7,394 bases of DNA, from positions 1 to 7,394 of IMG/VR virus record IMGVR_UViG_2671180727_000001; one strand, given 5' to 3'. A program made the position numbers and the translations under genes. Source of the DNA: a virus. Lineage: Duplodnaviria > Heunggongvirae > Uroviricota > Caudoviricetes. Positions within the stretch are counted from its first letter, which is position 1. Each line of letters starts with the position of its first letter. Under the pieces are notes generated by a model. It searched no databases, was not told the origin of the DNA, and saw only the letters and a list, made by a program, of their open reading frames with translations. Below, one piece after another: positions 1 to 7,394 of this stretch.

Positions 1-1007
1 GTTGTGGCTGTTGAAGCAGACGATGCGGCACTTTCTGCCGATTTTCCGGCGGCGGTGGCACTGGCTGAGGCCTGCCCGGCACTTGTTGACGCGGCACTGG
101 CAGACGATGCAGCCGCTGTTTTTGAGCCTGCCGCAGCTGAGGCGCTCTGTCCCGCTGCCGTCTCAGAAGACCTGGCGTTCGTCTCGGACGTTTTTGCCGC
201 CTTCGCGGAATTTCCTGCCGCCGTTGCCGAGGAAGCTGCGCTACTGGCGCTCAAGGATGCGTTCGTTTCTGATGATTTCGCTGCCTCTTTTGAGGCCGCC
301 GCATCCCGGGCTGAGGTGGCAGCTTCTGACGCTTTCGTGGTCGCGGTGGATGCAGAAGTGGCTGCTGATTGTTGTGACGCTGCGGCATTCGTTTCAGATT
401 TTTTCGCAGCAGTTGCACTCGCACTTGCGGCACTTTGTGAGGATGCCGCAGCGGATGCACTTTGAGACGCTTGAGAGGCTTTTTCTCCAGCGGTATTGGC
501 GCTTTCTGCTGCTGCGGCAGCACTGGCCGCCGCCTCACGAGCTTTGTCGCCAGCAGCATCAATCGCGTCAGTGTTATTTTTATACCACTCAACGTTTTCG
601 TTGTGCTCGTTGACGATCTGCATTAGCGGCTTAACGGTTACTTCTGTACCGTCTTCACGCTCGATTGTCACCTCATCCAGAGCAGTCAACCAACTGCGCA
701 TAGACTTGGAATCAGCCGACATACGCGACATTAGTGCTGTAAAGCGCGCGCTAAACTGTGTTAAGTCGCCTTCATAGGTCGTAATGATTCGGCACGGAAC
801 TTCAGACTGAGTTTCGCCGGTATAAGGTTCTGAGAGAACAATGTTCGTATCACTGGTTACGCGCTTGATCTCATACAGTTTATTGTCGGGGCCAATGACG
901 ATCATCCCCGGCAACACACCATTAGCTGTTACGTTCCAGGCTGTCCCTGCCCCAACCAGAGTATTGCTACCCTGTGTAAATGTGATAGTACCTTCCCTGT
1001 ACCACAT
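1..1007 (-). CDS. stf: Side tail fibre protein, lambda Stf-like; N-terminal 335 codons only, 3' end lies beyond the window start
   Basis: Manual minus-strand translation from ATG at 1007..1005 is open for 335 codons to position 1 (MWYREGTITFTQGSNTLVGAGTAWNVTANGVLPGMIVIGPDNKLYEIKRVTSDTNIVLSEPYTGETQSEVPCRIITTYEGDLTQF...). From about position 540 downward it becomes an Ala/Ser/Thr-rich repeat region (...KKSETNAAASQQSAATSASTATTKASEAATSARDAAASKEAAKSSETNAS...) that is close to the repeat region of lambda Stf as I recall it. AAGGAG lies 10 nt upstream of the ATG. Not in the ORF track because there is no in-window stop. Confidence 0.8.
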   Translation of the reverse strand, partial: MWYREGTITFTQGSNTLVGAGTAWNVTANGVLPGMIVIGPDNKLYEIKRVTSDTNIVLSEPYTGETQSEVPCRIITTYEGDLTQFSARFTALMSRMSADSKSMRSWLTALDEVTIEREDGTEVTVKPLMQIVNEHNENVEWYKNNTDAIDAAGDKAREAAASAAAAAESANTAGEKASQASQSASAAASSQSAASASATAAKKSETNAAASQQSAATSASTATTKASEAATSARDAAASKEAAKSSETNASLSASSAASSATAAGNSAKAAKTSETNARSSETAAGQSASAAAGSKTAAASSASAASTSAGQASASATAAGKSAESAASSASTAT

Positions 1008-1028
1008 GTTGAATATGCTCCTTGATTT

Positions 1029-1065
1029 GGCGGGTTATCCTTGCCCGCCATTAAGTAATTACTTA
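1029..1065. promoter_or_regulatory. Intergenic inverted repeats between J stop and stf start: GGCGGG-N9-CCCGCC (1029-1049) and a perfect 14-bp palindrome TAAGTAATTACTTA (1052-1065)
   Basis: Read directly from the sequence. The GC hairpin sits immediately upstream of the stf Shine-Dalgarno on the minus strand. No U-tract follows it on either strand, so it is not a canonical intrinsic terminator. Function unknown. Confidence 0.3.
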
Positions 1066-1100
1066 CCTATTTTTACCGATATAAAATTTTTTTTCCACCA

Positions 1101-4100
1101 TCACAGACGGCCAATTCTTACTCGTAAGACGTTGTTATCGTCATAAACGTCAATCCGCTGACCATTTATAACCAATCGCCCATTGCCGCCGCTATTACCG
1201 TTGATCTCAAGCGTTCCATTTTTGCCGAACCGCCATCCAGATCTACCGCTAACAAAATTGGTAGATTGCAGATCGCCTACTTTTGCATTGGTGATTGTGC
1301 CATCCTTGATATACGCTCCATTCATATAGGCGATACTGTTTTCGATAACAAATGGCGTTGTGATCTTCCCGTTAACAGAGTTGACCAAACCAAACCTGTC
1401 CGCCTGAACCAAAAACTGAGATAGCCCAGTGGTGTCAATACCAAGCGCAATACCGGCAACATACTTCTGCCCTCCGCTCGTTGAAGTTTCCATTTTCAAC
1501 GTCCACGCGGTTGACACTTTTTTGTTGGTATCAGCAATAGCTGTTGCCTGCTGTTGAATTGTCGCGGTATTTCCATCCACCTCTGCTTTCAGAGTATCGA
1601 TTCGCCCACTCAGAGCATTATCTGCCTGCGTTCTCGCTGTCGTTTCAGTTGTTACCGCCGCGGAAATGTTGGCTGCCGTTTGAGACTCTAAGTTTGTGAT
1701 TTGAGTCGCCAATGCAGCATCTTGCTCTGTACGCGTTTTCGTTTCGGTTGCTACAGCCGCTTTAATATCCTCTTTGTATTGAGAGGTCAGCTTGGTGATC
1801 TGAGACGACAACGCCGAGTCAGCATCAGTTCGAGCCTGCGTTTCAACTGCAACGGCCGCACTAATATCTTTCGCTGTCTGTGCTTTTAAACTTGAAACCT
1901 CTTTTGTTAAAGCGGTATCACCATCTGCACGAGCCGTTGTTTCTCTGGCAAGAGACGCCTCGAGATCATTAGCTTTTGCTGTAAGAGACGTAATCTGGGT
2001 AGACAATGCACTATCGGCATCAGTCCTTGCTTTTGTCTCTACAGCAACCGCTGCGGCAATATCAGTTCCGGTTTGTGCTCGCAGGCTGTTAATTTCTCGT
2101 GAGAGCGCCTGGTCAGCACTTGCTCTGGCCTCCTGCTCCTGAGTGATGGCCGCGGATATATCACCGTCAACCTTTGACTGAAGCTGGTTTATTTGTTTGG
2201 CTAACGCAGAGTCCCCGCTTGCTCGGGCCTCCTGCTCACTACGTATTGCAGCAGAAATATCATCATCAACCTTTGCCTGAAGTTGGGTGATCTGGCTTGC
2301 CAGAGCCGAATCTTCCGTTGCTCGGGCTTCTTGCTCTTCCTTAATAGCTGCGACGATATCGTTGCTTACTTTCGACTCAAGCTGAGTGATCTGTGTCGTC
2401 AGAGCTTCATCGGCAGATGTACGAGCCTCCTGCTCTGTACTAATCGCCGCGCTGATATCTCCTTCAAACTTAGATTGCAGCTGAGTGACACGCTTTGCCA
2501 ACGCTTCATCGCCATCGGCACGAGCGGTGGACTCTTCCAGAATACTGGCCTTAATGTCTTCGCCAATTTCTACGCGAATTTCCTCAACCTTCGTGGCCAT
2601 TGCAGACATATCATCAGCAAAGGTTTTCTGTGTTGTTGCGATCTTCGCGTTATTGACCATCTGCTTGTGCTGGTCTTCATCTTGACGAAGAGCCAGGTCA
2701 ATATTTGTTTTGGCTAACGCCTCAATGTTCGTAGTCAGTTCTGCACTGGCACGATCGACCTCTGCAACCGTCTTTTTCATTTCTTCAACGGCAGCGGAGC
2801 TTTCCTCTACCGTTGACTGCAACACTTCCAGTTGTTTAGCGTTTGCAGCATCGCCTTCAACACGAGCCTCGCTTTCCTTAGCAATAAGAGCCGCCGCTTC
2901 ATCTCTTGCAGCCTTTATTGCCTCGACTGTATTAGCGAGAGCTTTATCGTGTTCAGATACGGTGTTTTCGATTTCAACAATTGCAGCATCAGTAGCATCA
3001 ATTTTTTCAAACGCTTCATTGACCTTGTCGATCGTTGCCGAAACCTCACCTTTAAGCTCGGTTTGTGCGTTCTCCAAAGCATCGCTACGCTCGTTGAATT
3101 TTATTTCAAAATCCGCGAGGTTATCGCTGAACTGCTTATCTAATTCAGCTATATCTTCCTTAACGTCGTTTACCGCCCCCTCCAAAGATTCGACGCTCTG
3201 GTTGATATGCTCATTTAACTCGTCAACTGCTTCTTGAGAGGCTTTGCTGTTGATGTCCTCAAGCAGAGCCTGACCAAGCTCGGAAGATGTAATTTTGCCA
3301 GTCAGGAACGACAGTACATCGCGAGTTGTCGCCTCTGTACCCAAGTTTGAGTTCGGAGGACTTAACATACCTCGCTTGTTCGATGCTCGAACCCAGTAAT
3401 ACCACGTTTCGCTATCCCCAAGACCAGCATGTGTAAAGGTGGTGCTTGCAGACTCTGCGATCAGTTTCGCCGTATCCAGATTGTTGGTCTGGGATGCGTA
3501 AACATTAATGTGATCAAGGTCTACCGAATCTGGATTAACCCAATTCAGTATCACATTACGATAGTCTCCAACGGCCGTTAATGACGTTGGGGCATCCGGC
3601 GGTGTCATTGTGCCCAACACCTGATAAACGGTACTGATAATCTCTGTTTTTTTACCGTTGAATGAAACCGCATACAGCTGGAAGTCGTAGCGTCCATTCT
3701 CCGCGACATTAACGATTTCGTATTGCTCTTCGGTTACACGCGCCGATTGCCAGTTCGATACATTGTTTTCATCAGAACGTCGCCAACTGATCCAATACTC
3801 TGGAGATTTCCCTTCCCATGTTGCAGTCAGTTTTACTGACAGGTTGCCCGGGCTTGAGAGATAAGTCCCTTCAGTGATTTGCAGATTAGATGGCTTGGAG
3901 TAAGTTGGGTCCAATACCGTCGTATTCTGCGGGATCAGCGTTGCACCATTGTCGATTGCCTCATATTTAGACGGATTGTTCTCAACAGCGGTGATGTCAA
4001 AGCTACCCGGCGTTTCCCCCTGCGCGATGTTAACGATGCGAACGCGCATAGGTTCGAGGTCTGGTTCTGTAATAGTCCAGACGCCGTTCAAAACAGGCGT

Positions 4101-5828
4101 TTCAGCCGAAGACAGGGCTTTTGAAAACGTAACTTTTGTTATATTTTCGCCAGTTTCAAGAACATCGCGTTCAACGATTTTGCCTTCCTGATTCAGTATT
4201 CGAATAAAGCAGCCGCCTTTGGCTAACGACACAGGCGCATCGAGTGTGACGCTGTTTTTGGTAAACGCCACAATTCGACCTGAGTTACGTTTGCCTGCGC
4301 GATATTTGTTCTGAATCAGAACGGTTTCACCAGGCATCAGAAATGACGCGTCTAAGCCGGCAGTAAATGTAATTACATCCGACTCCATTCTGGCGGTATA
4401 TAAAAGCCACAAACCAACTCGGTGAGCCTGCCCTCGGCTTGTACAGCCAAATGCTACGACTTCTGTTTTACGCTCACCATAACGGCGCATTGCGTCCTGA
4501 TCTTCGACGTACTCGATGTTTTGCTTATAACCGTCCTCCTTGTTGTTGTAGGTTACGAGCGCAACGGATGGGCGATCTTTACGCGCAGAACCTTTATAGG
4601 TAAACAATCCATCTTTGACGTTAGAGTTGGTAAACATCATTACCGGATCTGATGGGCTATCCTGCATGATGTTAACCATCCCACCAGCCCAAAACACCAT
4701 GCCGCGGAATGCTCCGGCAATATCCTGAATTAGCCGGTATGCGTCCTGTCGACTGGTGATCTGCGTATTGATTGCAAAGCGTTTCTCTTTGCCACCAAAG
4801 CCATCATCGACCTCTTCGTCACAATATCGACCAATCTGGTACAACTGGCCAAGGTCAATCATAGATTCCGACACATACTGACCAAGGCCATATCGAGCAT
4901 TGGTCAGCAAATCAAAGAGAATCCACGCGGGGTTCGAAGAAGACAACAGCTTAAAAGTGCCATCCCATACCCCAGCGTAAGTGTTACTGGACTCGTTATA
5001 GTTTGAAGGTACTCGAATTTTTAGGCCACGCACCAGATAAGAGCGAGATGGCATGGTGCTGCCGAATTGCTCAGAGTTTACCTTCAATCCAACCAAAACA
5101 GAGTTTGGATAGTTCATCGGTGTATCGACAATTTCCCCGATTGAATCCACCCATGTATCGTTATAGAGATACTGGCTACTGTTATCATCGGTAATACGGA
5201 CCACACGAACCTTGTATGCTCGTCCAGGCTTAGGCAGCTTCAGCTCATAGCTACGGTAATAAACGCCGGTCTTCTTTGCTGTTAGCTTAATGCCAACGCT
5301 TTTTTCACCTTCAGCGACCACATCTACAAATGTTGAGTCGCCATTTGCTATCTGGAACTTGTACTCAACAGTCGTACCGTTCGTGTCACCAGTTTTTTTA
5401 TCTATGCTTCGCAAAGAAGGAAACTTCATGATGACACGAACCCGATCAGCTTCATCGTTATCGATTGAAACCGTTACATAATGTGTTTTTTTTAACTGGA
5501 TATTGACGGATTTAGGCGTTTCAACGAAATCAAAGCCAGACATTGGAGTCTGGTCTTGTGAACCGTCGCGAAAATCCCATGTGATTCCGCTGAAGTTGGA
5601 GGAACCGTCTTCATTTACAATCGGCAGATCGTCGATAAAAATAGATCTTGCGCCATTTACCAAGCCGCCAATTACCCCTTCCCCAAGAAGATCGAGGATA
5701 GCGGCCATTGCACGAGAATTTACGGTATCGTCGGCTTCAACCGGTGTACGGCTAGAGCTTTTGCTGCTTTTTTTACCACCCGCACCTGCAATAAACAGCG
5801 GTAACTTTTTCTTCTTGAACTGTTCCAT
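1101..5828 (-). CDS. J: Host specificity / central tail fibre protein, lambda gpJ-like, with a greatly expanded coiled-coil insertion (about 1575 aa)
   Basis: ORF-track ORF 1101..5834 (TTG); I prefer the in-frame ATG at 5828, two codons in, with AAGGA upstream. The N-terminal ~880 aa match lambda J as recalled (e.g. NYPNSVLVGLKVNSEQFGSTMPSRSYLVRGLKIRVPSNYNESSNTYAGVWDGTFK against lambda CYPNTALVGVQVDSEQFGSQQVSRNYHLRGRILQVPSNYNPQTRQYSGIWDGTFK; also FGCTSRGQAHRVGLWLL and the GKITSSELG motif). The C-terminal GGQKYVAGIALGID...LSQFLVQADRFGLVNS matches lambda KHYVAGIGLSMED...LSQFLVAANRIAFID. Stop TGA at 1103..1101. Confidence 0.9.
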   Translation of the reverse strand: MEQFKKKKLPLFIAGAGGKKSSKSSSRTPVEADDTVNSRAMAAILDLLGEGVIGGLVNGARSIFIDDLPIVNEDGSSNFSGITWDFRDGSQDQTPMSGFDFVETPKSVNIQLKKTHYVTVSIDNDEADRVRVIMKFPSLRSIDKKTGDTNGTTVEYKFQIANGDSTFVDVVAEGEKSVGIKLTAKKTGVYYRSYELKLPKPGRAYKVRVVRITDDNSSQYLYNDTWVDSIGEIVDTPMNYPNSVLVGLKVNSEQFGSTMPSRSYLVRGLKIRVPSNYNESSNTYAGVWDGTFKLLSSSNPAWILFDLLTNARYGLGQYVSESMIDLGQLYQIGRYCDEEVDDGFGGKEKRFAINTQITSRQDAYRLIQDIAGAFRGMVFWAGGMVNIMQDSPSDPVMMFTNSNVKDGLFTYKGSARKDRPSVALVTYNNKEDGYKQNIEYVEDQDAMRRYGERKTEVVAFGCTSRGQAHRVGLWLLYTARMESDVITFTAGLDASFLMPGETVLIQNKYRAGKRNSGRIVAFTKNSVTLDAPVSLAKGGCFIRILNQEGKIVERDVLETGENITKVTFSKALSSAETPVLNGVWTITEPDLEPMRVRIVNIAQGETPGSFDITAVENNPSKYEAIDNGATLIPQNTTVLDPTYSKPSNLQITEGTYLSSPGNLSVKLTATWEGKSPEYWISWRRSDENNVSNWQSARVTEEQYEIVNVAENGRYDFQLYAVSFNGKKTEIISTVYQVLGTMTPPDAPTSLTAVGDYRNVILNWVNPDSVDLDHINVYASQTNNLDTAKLIAESASTTFTHAGLGDSETWYYWVRASNKRGMLSPPNSNLGTEATTRDVLSFLTGKITSSELGQALLEDINSKASQEAVDELNEHINQSVESLEGAVNDVKEDIAELDKQFSDNLADFEIKFNERSDALENAQTELKGEVSATIDKVNEAFEKIDATDAAIVEIENTVSEHDKALANTVEAIKAARDEAAALIAKESEARVEGDAANAKQLEVLQSTVEESSAAVEEMKKTVAEVDRASAELTTNIEALAKTNIDLALRQDEDQHKQMVNNAKIATTQKTFADDMSAMATKVEEIRVEIGEDIKASILEESTARADGDEALAKRVTQLQSKFEGDISAAISTEQEARTSADEALTTQITQLESKVSNDIVAAIKEEQEARATEDSALASQITQLQAKVDDDISAAIRSEQEARASGDSALAKQINQLQSKVDGDISAAITQEQEARASADQALSREINSLRAQTGTDIAAAVAVETKARTDADSALSTQITSLTAKANDLEASLARETTARADGDTALTKEVSSLKAQTAKDISAAVAVETQARTDADSALSSQITKLTSQYKEDIKAAVATETKTRTEQDAALATQITNLESQTAANISAAVTTETTARTQADNALSGRIDTLKAEVDGNTATIQQQATAIADTNKKVSTAWTLKMETSTSGGQKYVAGIALGIDTTGLSQFLVQADRFGLVNSVNGKITTPFVIENSIAYMNGAYIKDGTITNAKVGDLQSTNFVSGRSGWRFGKNGTLEINGNSGGNGRLVINGQRIDVYDDNNVLRVRIGRL
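1572..2558 (-). repeat. About ten imperfect tandem 99-bp (33-codon) repeats inside J, encoding DISAAIxxEQEARxxADxALxxQITQLxSKVxx-type units
   Basis: The translation shows consecutive 33-residue units (DISAAISTEQEARTSADEALTTQITQLESKVSN / DIVAAIKEEQEARATEDSALASQITQLQAKVDD / DISAAIRSEQEARASGDSALAKQINQLQSKVDG / ...). At DNA level a recurring motif appears at ~100-bp spacing (gctctggcctcctgctc near 2122, gctcgggcctcctgctc near 2220, gctcgggcttcttgctc near 2320, acgagcctcctgctc near 2421). Confidence 0.7.
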
Positions 5829-5846
5829 GTTCAAAAAAATCCTTGT

Positions 5847-6440
5847 TTACATTAGCTGGTCAATCGTGATTGAAGAACTCACAACCTGTGAGCCAACCAG
5901 AATTTCCTCGCCATAGATAAGTTGTACTGGGTTGCCCTGGTTTTCTGTATTTTGAGGGCCGTCGAAATAATAAGAGTTCGAGTTATCTGCCTGTCTCACA
6001 CTTTCGTTAGTGGCTTGCGGCGATATGATTTGTGATATGCCGCCCATCATCAGTGACAAACCGAGAGGTGCTAAAGCAGGCATCACTACCGCCGATACAA
6101 CCAACAAAGCGGCCCCTACTACCGTCTGAAACCACCCAAAAGCAGATCCACCGCTTCCTCGCGGAACAGGTGTAATGCGGATTTTGGCAATGTTGTCAGA
6201 CTGCCCCATCATCTGATATTCACTTTCGTCAACAGACCACTTGTGGCCCTGTTTATTGGTGATCTGGATGTGGTAACGGTCATAGGTTTTGATATTGCGC
6301 TTCATCCATGCTTTAAACCCAGGCTTGTTGGCCTCAATTAAATCCAGAGCCTGTTTTGTATTGCGCACCTTTAGATGCCAGTGGCGGCCAAAATGTTTGG
6401 CCATAGGGCCGCCAAGCTGCACATGAACTAACTCAGACAC
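5847..6440 (-). CDS. I: Tail assembly protein, lambda gpI-like (197 aa from GTG)
   Basis: ORF-track ORF; start is GTG at 6440..6438 with GGGAG upstream; a later ATG at 6404 is an alternative. The N-terminus VQLGGPMAKHFGRHWHLKVRNTKQALDLIEANKPGFKAWM resembles the recalled lambda gpI N-terminus (VRLYGDLADRFG...ANYPGFQSAM). The C-terminal half has a Gly-rich segment followed by a hydrophobic stretch (PRGSGGSAFGWFQTVVGAALLVVSAVVMPALAPLGLSLMMGG). Position between K and J matches lambda gene order. Confidence 0.8.
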   Translation of the reverse strand: MSELVHVQLGGPMAKHFGRHWHLKVRNTKQALDLIEANKPGFKAWMKRNIKTYDRYHIQITNKQGHKWSVDESEYQMMGQSDNIAKIRITPVPRGSGGSAFGWFQTVVGAALLVVSAVVMPALAPLGLSLMMGGISQIISPQATNESVRQADNSNSYYFDGPQNTENQGNPVQLIYGEEILVGSQVVSSSITIDQLM

Positions 6441-7225
6441 GTCTCATCTCCCTTGAGCAAGTCTCTGTGACGCAAGTGATGCGTCGTATGTTTCTGATAC
6501 ATTCCGCCGTAATAAGCACGACAACTAAGACGGTCGATCTGGTGATGAAGAATCATTCCATCGCCGATATAAACCGCGCAGTGATCTGGCATTTTCCCGT
6601 ATTGAATAAAGAAGACGTCCCCACGTTGAGGCTCTGTTCCAGGTGCAAGCCGTACCAATCCCTCGTTTCGGTAGTTCTGGTCGAGAATGTCGTTATCGCC
6701 GGTGTACCACGATGGAATATGCAGGTGTGCGTTCGGGTTAAGCTCGACGTTAAACTCACGCTTCAAATAGTCCCGACACAACATCCAGCAATCGAATACG
6801 CCAAATACATACGGTCTACCCAGGTATGGCATTTCGAAACCATCAGGTGTGATCACATTCATCTCGCTAAAATGGAAAGGGGCATCTCCCTCAACATTCT
6901 TGCGAATAGCCAGAATCATCCACGGAACTTCCGTCGCTTCACAGCCTGCACGATCGGCATCAGATGCTTCTGCTGATTCATCAGTATGTGAATGCCAGAT
7001 TGCGATTACGTCACCTGCATCCTCTGCCGCCATAATGTCGTCAACGTGCATTACAAAAGTGTTCTGCGGGTTCTCCGAAACATTTCGCGCTTCCATAAAG
7101 CGATATTTGTCGCCATTAGTTCTCACCAGAAAGCCACACGCTTCATTAGGGTAGCGATTTATGGCGCAGAGATAGATTTGCTGCATAACATCAGAGCCAA
7201 GCTCAGGGATTGCTTTATTACCCAT
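6428..7225 (-). CDS. K: Tail assembly protein, lambda gpK-like, with MPN/JAMM and NlpC/P60 domains (266 aa from ATG)
   Basis: ORF-track ORF 6428..7252 starts at TTG; I prefer the ATG at 7225..7223, which has GGAG 9 nt upstream. The JAMM motif H-x-H-x7-S-x2-D is present as HSHTDESAEASDAD, preceded by PNEACGFLV. NlpC/P60-like Cys and His contexts are present (GVFDCWMLCRDYL; HCAVYIGDGMILHH). The stop overlaps the I start by 13 nt. Confidence 0.85.
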   Translation of the reverse strand: MGNKAIPELGSDVMQQIYLCAINRYPNEACGFLVRTNGDKYRFMEARNVSENPQNTFVMHVDDIMAAEDAGDVIAIWHSHTDESAEASDADRAGCEATEVPWMILAIRKNVEGDAPFHFSEMNVITPDGFEMPYLGRPYVFGVFDCWMLCRDYLKREFNVELNPNAHLHIPSWYTGDNDILDQNYRNEGLVRLAPGTEPQRGDVFFIQYGKMPDHCAVYIGDGMILHHQIDRLSCRAYYGGMYQKHTTHHLRHRDLLKGDETCLS

Positions 7226-7294
7226 ATCGCGTAGCTCCAATAAACCCGCCAAAATGGATCACTCCGTTGGCAAAATAATTCCGACGCGCATTAC
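7218..7294 (-). pseudogene. L: 3'-terminal remnant (24 codons plus stop) of a lambda gpL-like tail tip assembly gene, truncated at the IS boundary
   Basis: Minus-strand frame reads ...NARRNYFANGVIHFGGFIGATRYG* and resembles the lambda gpL C-terminus as recalled (...KFRNNVGNFGGFLSINKLSQ*). Its TAA stop overlaps the K start (ATGGGTAA), as in lambda L/K coupling. The frame is cut at 7294/7295 by the IS end and no L N-terminus is present in the window. Confidence 0.55.
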
Positions 7295-7394
7295 TGAACC
7301 GCCCCGGGAATCCTGGAGACTAAACTTCCTGAGAAAGAGGTAAACAGGATGACTAAAAATACTCGTTTTTCCCCTGAAGTCCGTCAACGGGCAG
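7295..7394 (+). mobile_element. Left end (IRL plus leader) of an IS3-family insertion sequence, IS629/IS1203-like; continues beyond the window
   Basis: The sequence from 7295, TGAACCGCCCCGGGAATCCTGGAGACTAAACTTCCTGAGAAAGAGGTAAACAGGATG..., begins with the TG dinucleotide typical of IS3-family ends and matches my recollection of the IS629/IS1203 left terminus. It is followed by the orfA start. Only one end is visible, so the target-site duplication cannot be assessed. Confidence 0.8.
7359..7394 (+). CDS. IS3-family transposase OrfA, N-terminal 12 codons (partial)
   Basis: ATG at 7359 is preceded by GAGAAAGAGG (SD) with 8-nt spacing. The translation MTKNTRFSPEVRQRA matches the N-terminus of IS629/IS1203-type OrfA (HTH protein) as recalled. 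Not in the ORF track because there is no stop in the window. Confidence 0.8.
   Translation, partial: MLVFPLKSVNGQ

Follow-up and report, generated by a model that had tools for sequence, protein, structure and literature searches.

The central fibre gene J of a tailed virus (Duplodnaviria; Heunggongvirae; Uroviricota; Caudoviricetes), deposited in IMG/VR as IMGVR_UViG_2671180727_000001, contains a tandem array of ten units, nine of them 33 residues long. The stretch of DNA that we analysed, positions 1 to 7,394 of the record and 7,394 nucleotides in length (the window), carries the tail-tip module of an SSU5-type phage-plasmid, with every gene on the minus strand. We consider it probable that each unit is a copy of the widespread shaft module of F-type pyocins, and that the array forms a coiled-coil shaft that switches to a beta-prism on receptor binding. 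The analysis establishes the repeat, the homology, the fit to a sequence motif of the pyocin shaft, the variation in copy number and the junctions that accompany it. By analogy with its relatives, J of the window most likely forms a trimeric coiled coil; a fold switch like that of its metastable pyocin relative is likely, with chances near even, judging from homology and motif.

The repeat array within J

By its domains and its neighbourhood, J is a lambda-J-like tail tip / central fibre protein (TipJ). Four Pfam matches lie above their curated cut-offs (FNIII-A_GpJ at residues 104-238, Phage-tail_3 at 360-523, fn3 at 747-826 and Phage_Tail_Tip at 1425-1559), and the gene order K (JAB + NlpC/P60) - I - J - side tail fibre is present. 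The protein shares 99.7% of its amino acids with the "tail host specificity protein J" of Escherichia phage Cyrano, which together with the Pfam domains shows that the initial annotation of this DNA, made from the letters alone, named the gene correctly; its amino acid identity to the J homologue of Salmonella phage SSU5 (gp20) is 74%. Sequence matches among PDB entries are the F2 pyocin fibre, T1 gp33 and lambda J (8iyk_J, E 2e-124 with phmmer). The J allele is found in 172 of 5426 complete E. coli genomes, on plasmids and never on a chromosome. Relatives are annotated from an ATG two codons downstream of the start used here (5828, MEQFKKKK, 1575 residues), and public residue numbers are lower by 2. 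The gene and its array are laid out as follows.

1101-5834, minus strand: J (TipJ), tail tip / central fibre gene, a 1577-residue open reading frame (ORF) from TTG at 5834
1572-2558, minus strand: repeat array of ten units, J residues 1093-1421 (329 residues, 987 nucleotides)
2460-2558, 2361-2459, 2262-2360, 2163-2261 and 2064-2162, minus strand: units 1 to 5
1965-2063, 1869-1964 (unit 7, 32 residues), 1770-1868, 1671-1769 and 1572-1670, minus strand: units 6 to 10

The units stand head to tail, nine with 33 residues and unit 7 with 32. The initial annotation had placed an array of about ten units at 1572-2558, visible in both protein and DNA, and had proposed a self-similarity check at an offset of 99 bp; the coordinates are exact, and DNA identity at that offset is 0.48, far above the 0.289 +/- 0.013 of codon-shuffled controls, whose 500 shuffles peaked, over all offsets, at 0.354. 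The runner-up DNA offsets are 198, 393 and 297; in the protein, an offset of 33 gives an identity of 0.40. It is in the protein that the repeat is maintained, and in the DNA it is much weaker: the units are only 39-65% identical to one another in pairwise DNA comparison, their longest exact in-register match is 12 bp, and identical residue pairs share a codon in only 35% of cases, so that Tandem Repeats Finder sees only 2.2 copies (2119-2336, 76% matches). In place of that program we used offset-identity statistics and a profile hidden Markov model (HMM) of the unit, with which each of the ten units scores 46-60 bits.

Seven positions of the unit are invariant (A4, E9, R13, D17, A19, L20 and L27) and eight more are nearly so, within the consensus D-I-x-A-A-I-x-x-E-x-x-A-R-(A/T)-x-x-D-x-A-L-x-x-x-I-x-x-L-x-(S/A)-x-x-x-x. 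A check for a rise in beta propensity from unit to unit, with more T/V/I in units 6 and 8-10, gave a trend too weak for use. Short plus-strand ORFs that overlap the array, antisense inside J, were considered and taken as by-products of J coding.

A sequence motif shared with F-type pyocins

The shaft that carries the array, and the tip after it, are homologous by sequence alignment to the C-terminal ~400 residues of the F-type pyocin central fibre protein. Full-length J aligns at residues 1277-1549 to residues 927-1193 of F2 pyocin chain 25vf_A with 84.6 bits; with the array alone as the phmmer query, J residues 1243-1468 (C-terminal units and tip) align to 882-1108 of the same chain (E 9e-10). 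Residues 1140-1284 of J align by phmmer to residues 893-1036 of T1 gp33 (9l9p_S), a region that also repeats every 33 residues. Two independent studies by cryo-electron microscopy (cryo-EM) describe the F-pyocin shaft as a three-stranded coiled coil (PMC13455828; bioRxiv 10.64898/2026.02.24.707460), and one of them, combining cryo-EM with SOCKET2, finds a mainly continuous heptad register with one stutter (bioRxiv 10.64898/2026.02.24.707460). He et al. 2026 (PMC12874032) report that the 163-residue shaft of the F7 pyocin refolds to a triangular beta-prism after cell contact, and that Gln at small "corner" residues stops killing but does not stop assembly. Each prism strand carries the motif SxSxxMxxLxS, in which S stands for a small residue, L for L/I/V and M for a hydrophobic residue or an acidic one paired with Arg at +/-4 (PMC12874032). 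The main text of that paper holds no SSU5 and no repeat analysis, and never uses the word "repeat".

This motif recurs in every strand-length segment of the array, in alternating orientation. All ten units carry a reverse SxLxxMxxSxS at positions 4-14 and a forward SxSxxMxxLxS at positions 19-29, each unit with 10 of 10 motif positions filled; the 32 alternative registers reach 1.6-6.3 of 10, and ~3 perfect hits arise in shuffles against the 11-16 observed. The acidic M position and its Arg at +/-4 are present as well, E9, R13 and D17 being invariant in the ten units. Pyocin numbering rebuilt from the alignment matches each of the ten residues that the papers name (A987, A995, A998, V1010, A1011, A1017, E1039, R1043, L1050 and I1054), which fixes the register: E9 and R13 of the unit correspond to the "M" position E1039 of the F7 pyocin and its i+4 partner R1043, and the motif register agrees with A987, A995, V1010, A1017 and E1039. 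In the pyocin the motif centres lie at 990, 1007, 1022, 1039, 1054 and 1071, with forward/reverse alternation and a 17/15 spacing that amounts to a hairpin period of 32 residues.

The same columns are conserved far from the window. Among 55 non-redundant units from 29 proteins that are less than 50% identical to J, small residues occupy the six S positions (4, 12, 14, 19, 21 and 29) in 95-100%, I6 and L27 are hydrophobic in 93-100%, E9, R13 and D17 are present in 98%, 98% and 87%, and the boundary positions 32-33-1 are G/N/D/P in 89-100%. A coiled coil would turn the S positions towards solvent, and so by itself it leaves both their strict smallness and the conserved helix breakers unexplained. 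The strongest hydropathy harmonic of the unit has a period of 2.06 (p=0.013 when the 33 columns are permuted), as alternation along beta strands would give, and a harmonic at 16.5 fits two half-units. The layout of the unit is a strand, a D/G/S-rich turn at 15-18, a second strand and a G/N/D-rich loop at 30-33 plus position 1; read in this way, one unit most likely corresponds to one beta-hairpin (two strands) of a pyocin-type prism.

Shaft, tip and possible folds of the array

The array forms the C-terminal part of a longer predicted shaft, which includes diverged copies of the unit and ends in a tip domain.

1605-3287, minus strand: whole predicted helical shaft including the array, J residues ~850-1410, its N-terminal limit drawn from sequence only
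2709-2996, minus strand: three older, diverged units at 32-residue spacing, residues ~947-1042, with motif pairs at 950/965 and 982/997 and a motif at 1014
2559-2657, minus strand: degenerate "unit 0" (VNNAKIATTQKTFADDMSAMATKVEEIRVEIGE), residues 1060-1092, just upstream of the array, with a reverse and forward motif pair at 1063/1078
1104-1604, minus strand: predicted beta "seed" strands and distal tip domain, residues 1411-1577, with the Phage_Tail_Tip match at 1158-1562

The motif pair of unit 0 was found with relaxed residue classes at a score of at least 9/10, and the unit HMM gave no detection over residues 1060-1092; the same HMM matches one of the older units, at residues 982-1010, with 14 bits. 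Hydropathy over residues 850-1092 peaks at 3.55 residues.

Structure was predicted with AlphaFold2 (AF2). With an alignment of 110 sequences, residues 1227-1407 are a single helix at a predicted local distance difference test (pLDDT) score of ~90-95, and strands begin at residue 1411, inside unit 10 (E188-196, E199-211, E217-228 and more, in model numbering), where non-switching seed strands would follow the shaft. From the single sequence, the helix spans residues 1324-1440, which takes in residues 1411-1440, and residues 1411-1434 are helical at pLDDT >87. The second half of unit 10 and the next half-unit (residues 1411-1434) are therefore modelled in either state, beta or helix, depending on alignment depth. 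This behaviour, seen here in monomer models, parallels the difference between deep and shallow alignments that He et al. report for trimers (PMC12874032). Foldseek searches of the AF2 model against the PDB matched the tip domain only, to the SU10 tail tip fibre (7z4b_EA, E 1e-7) and lambda gpJ (8xcj, E 3e-5); the long helix gave no informative match.

How might one sequence serve two folds? In the virion, the array units would form a continuous three-stranded coiled coil with a core of I2, I6, L20, I24, L27 and V31 and a buried E9-R13-D17 salt-bridge ladder, and from standard helix geometry the 329 residues would make a shaft ~49 nm long. The same units would carry a second code, consisting of the small residues at 4, 12, 14, 19, 21 and 29 and the G/N/D-rich turns at 15-18 and 32-33-1. 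On receptor binding, the shaft would zip up from its permanent C-terminal beta strands into a short, wide beta-prism, and this zipping may help to open the tail tip. Copy number would shift when short stretches of identity allow unequal exchange or slippage in register, so that whole hairpins are gained or lost and neither fold is disturbed. More tentatively, the array may act as a modular "spring" in which a unit can take one of two forms, three turns' worth of coiled coil or a single hairpin, with stroke and stored energy set by copy number; ten units would then go from ~49 nm of helix to ~10 nm of prism.

Several points weigh against a switch of this kind. Both AF2 runs are of monomers, with low predicted template modelling (pTM) scores (0.36-0.37) and helical repeats, and in neither is a full unit modelled as a hairpin or beta-prism. 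The ten motif matches are not independent, the units being paralogues; the distant units were gathered with an HMM built from these ten, and their columns are biased to the consensus. The sequence is A/S/T-rich, with non-motif positions small in 40-85%, and a degenerate motif is easier to hit in it. One relative, on the plasmid of E. coli STEC388, has a single canonical unit, and if that element is functional a long switching region is not essential. According to He et al., whose fold-switch paper is a preprint, lambda and T5 are without this extensive switch (PMC12874032), which is hence not universal among J-like proteins.

Would a rod that never refolds account for the array equally well? 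A permanent trimeric coiled coil, whose copy number tunes how far the receptor-binding tip reaches beyond the tail tip and side fibres, for example to suit the thickness of host surface polysaccharide, strikes us as rather unlikely. It draws on the confident continuous helix of the units in both AF2 runs, on the tolerance of 1 to 11 copies between otherwise conserved flanks, and on the F-pyocin shaft homologue, a coiled coil that is also a docking platform for side fibres (PMC13455828; bioRxiv 10.64898/2026.02.24.707460). It leaves unexplained, however, why six solvent-facing positions are small in nearly every unit across distant proteins, why G/N/D (P in 39-residue units) is conserved at two sites per unit of a supposedly continuous helix, and why period 2 dominates the hydropathy signal; furthermore, the pyocin homologue does refold, and its refolding is required for killing (PMC12874032). 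That dominant period, the T/V/I/S-rich composition of the units, a motif that is the one of prism strands and the AlphaFold3 (AF3) prism predicted for 30% of related central fibres (PMC12874032) could instead be taken to mean that the fibre is a beta-prism or beta-helix already in the virion and is never a coiled coil. We regard this as very improbable: AF2 makes the units helical at pLDDT up to 95-97, the conserved i/i+4 ladder of E9, R13 and D17 and the I2/L20 core are coiled-coil features, and the pre-ejection pyocin shaft is a coiled coil in both cryo-EM studies (PMC13455828; bioRxiv 10.64898/2026.02.24.707460).

Why, then, 33 residues? The initial annotation took the period as 3 x 11 and as the sign of a hendecad (11/3) coiled coil, near-straight or right-handed; that this geometry is the defining feature of the array, and that 33 was selected for it, now seems improbable to us, although parts of the claim hold. 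The nine candidate core positions per 33 (2, 6, 9, 13, 16/17, 20, 24, 27 and 31) average 3.67, the hydrophobic stripe on an undistorted helix would drift by +60 degrees per unit, slightly right-handed, and the spectral peak that the annotation proposed to seek by Fourier analysis exists, at 3.65-3.67. That peak is one of several harmonics and is not significant (p=0.23) in the column-permutation test over 33 columns that replaced the hydropathy Fourier test, and the harmonic at 2.06 is stronger. The intended comparison with heptads is void, since a 33-periodic sequence has power only at 33/k, so that 3.5 is excluded by construction and a Fourier test cannot separate heptad from hendecad. Core spacing in the consensus is irregular (3,4,3,4,4,3,4,4,4) rather than a regular 3-4-4. 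Multiples of 11, kept by nine of the ten units here, are not kept across the family: unit 7 and the three older upstream units have 32 residues, and spacings in 139 diverse representatives are 32 (681), 36 (128), 33 (81) and 39 (59). Hendecad periodicity is likewise not conserved in the solved homologue, the F-pyocin shaft, with its mainly heptad register and single stutter (bioRxiv 10.64898/2026.02.24.707460). The extra residues of 36- and 39-residue units sit after position 31 and contain P, G and N, which places the length variation in the loop between hairpins. The period of 33 is best seen as the common 32-residue module with one more loop residue, and not as the sign of an unusual hendecad coiled coil. 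In the wider family (P0121-P0259) spacings are almost all 32, 36, 33 or 39, rarely 25 and never 28 or 35, and each unit therefore seems always to hold a break from pure heptad register.

Copy number, neighbouring genes and known systems

SSU5 gp20 and the J proteins of SSU5-type phage-plasmids (Cyrano, PhiR41_1, Yersinia pestis pMT1 and others) are orthologues of J of the window, with the same array flanks and 74-99.7% identity. Counting units between the conserved flanks (upstream ...KVEEIR.EIGEDI..., downstream G-N-x-A-x-I-Q-Q-Q-A...KKVS-x-AWTLKMETS), we find 1, 5, 6, 9, 10 or 11 of them, which confirms the expectation in the initial annotation that copy number varies among homologous J genes.

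1 unit: E. coli STEC388 plasmid
5 units: SSU5, Salmonella Tennessee plasmid, Enterobacter hormaechei plasmid
6 units: Y. pestis pMT1
9 units: PhiR41_1, E. coli 2014C-3307, AH04/CT01, HCP30S3_I2
10 units: the window, Cyrano, CMS-2020a SCU-175, Shigella sonnei pMHMC-002
11 units: E. coli CUPF06

Closely related alleles seldom differ. Among 57 sampled alleles at least 97% identical to that of the window, copy number is other than ten in three. Overall, the survey of unit numbers took in 60 of 286 PLSDB records and 60 of 172 E. coli records in RefSeq. Four in-register gain or loss events were found, all in frame and involving the most similar units (3-5), and for three of them the junctions could be mapped at the DNA level, to microhomologies of 3, 10 and 12 bp. 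AH04 has lost exactly 99 bp, with the head of unit 4 fused to the tail of unit 5 at a GAC (3-bp microhomology). CUPF06 shows the opposite arrangement: it has gained a chimeric unit that begins as unit 5 and ends as unit 4. The 12-bp block GAGCAGGAGGCC, the longest stretch of identity within the array, contains this junction, which falls ~13 nt upstream of the one in AH04. In HCP30S3_I2 unit 4 was lost, the junction falling in a 10-bp block common to the ends of units 3 and 4, and PhiR41_1 has one unit fewer than its closest relatives. These events fit short-homology unequal exchange or slippage at a modest rate, not a hypermutable locus. The view in the initial annotation that the 99-bp repeats are substrates for slippage or unequal recombination thus survives in part: exchange in register does occur, but units that are so diverged in DNA are poor classical substrates. 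A contingency locus acting at the DNA level, of the hypermutable tandem-repeat kind, was rejected on the same grounds, namely the low identity between units, the shortness of their longest match and the few (~3/57) alleles that differ.

Some of the relatives differ in more than the number of units. J of the STEC388 plasmid pSTEC388_1 (1736-5425 of locus L011) has 1229 residues and a single canonical 33-residue unit, and keeps the upstream degenerate units and the tip; it is a natural minimal-shaft variant if the element still forms infectious particles. In pMT1 of Y. pestis CO92 (2022-6653 of locus L009), J has six units and a distal end that differs after the shared tip core, with ~170 extra C-terminal residues followed by a DUF4376 gene. 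In NZ_CP085184.1 and NZ_CP020118.1, J is broken by insertion sequences (of the IS1203 family and the IS1 family, respectively) in the region homologous to window positions 1300-2900, and these phage-plasmids are probably defective as phages.

Modules of this kind are already known and widespread. Among representatives of clusters made at 50% identity, 1811 match the array at E<=1e-3 and 118 do so at E<=1e-30; many of these proteins have 2000-2850 residues, with as many as 26 units, of which up to 21 stand in tandem, and some metagenomic tail proteins hold 20 or more units. Ten units are ordinary for the family, of whose central-fibre shafts the array is an expanded, cleanly tandem member. New here are the reading of one unit as one hairpin, the confinement of length variation to a loop, and a natural series of 1 to 11 units with mapped junctions.

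SSU5-type phage-plasmids are common and cultivable (Cyrano, SSU5 and PhiR41_1), and in them the switch motif forms a clean tandem array, of which natural variants have 1 to 11 units. If our interpretation is true, this series in otherwise near-identical tails would be a ready-made test of whether, in a phage rather than a tailocin, a fold switch drives penetration of the envelope, and the variants offer an experimental handle on adsorption, ejection and tail-tip distance. The array also points to a way of keeping a two-fold code in a repeat, in which length would change only in the loop between hairpins and whole hairpins would be exchanged in register. For annotation the lesson is that a period of 33 is, in this case, a variant of a 32-residue module.

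J is flanked by other genes of the tail tip.

5847-6440, minus strand: gpI-like (lambda) tail assembly / tip insertion gene, directly upstream of J (phrog_32 tail assembly protein, E 8e-62)
6428-7252, minus strand: lambda K-like tail tip assembly gene (Pfam Prok-JAB + NLPC_P60; K in the Cyrano annotation)
1-1007, minus strand: side tail fibre gene, 5' part, downstream of J and running off the window (phrog_22609 tail fiber protein, E 2e-139)

The counterpart of the gpI-like product in Cyrano is annotated as tail tip protein I. The protein has a long hydrophobic stretch, GWFQTVVGAALLVVSAVVMPALAPLGLSLMMGGISQII, and no Pfam family match; the stretch is similar to helices of the pyocin tip plug and of lambda gpI that are predicted to insert into membranes (PMC12874032). 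The Cyrano counterpart of the side fibre is CYRAN_21, tail fiber protein ("P1 S homolog"). The N-terminal part of the side fibre protein in the window includes ~190 residues of Ala/Ser/Thr-rich low complexity with recurring K-S-E-T-N-A-like motifs, in a region with a GC content of 0.60, the maximum of the window, and a strong AT skew.

Beyond its orthologues, J can be set beside three known systems. The F-type pyocin central fibre (F7 CFP; F2 PA0641; PDB 25vf, 25vj and 26ci) shares the J-like hub and FNIII (E 1e-154 over residues 20-861) and a C-terminal helical shaft followed by a beta tip, and its shaft aligns with the last units of the array; common to both are the alternating SxSxxMxxLxS motifs with their 15/17 spacing and the E/R i+4 salt bridge. 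The two differ in that the pyocin, a tailocin, has a switching region of 163 residues with a hairpin period of ~32 residues and no obvious tandem repeat at the sequence level, whereas J of the window, which belongs to a phage, has ten clear units (329 residues) and about four degenerate ones, which makes its region at least double the length. No repeat array is discussed in the three pyocin papers.

T1 gp33 (PDB 9l9p chain S), like its counterparts in the T1-like phages TLS and Shfl1, is J-like (E 1e-131) and has near-perfect 33-residue tandem units of the same family (LSREIDQLKAQIGDDIQASLTDIREVIATETEA), but fewer of them than J of the window. Only residues 13-820 of T1 gp33 are resolved, the repeat region being too flexible, and that region is known from AF3 only, as an alpha/beta-helix fibre of ~370 A (PMC11945409). 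Lambda gpJ (PDB 8iyk and 8xcj) shares the hub, FNIII, Phage_Tail_Tip and the K-I-J gene order, and the fold of its tip in 8xcj matches that of the window J; at 1132 residues, however, it is without the long repeat shaft.

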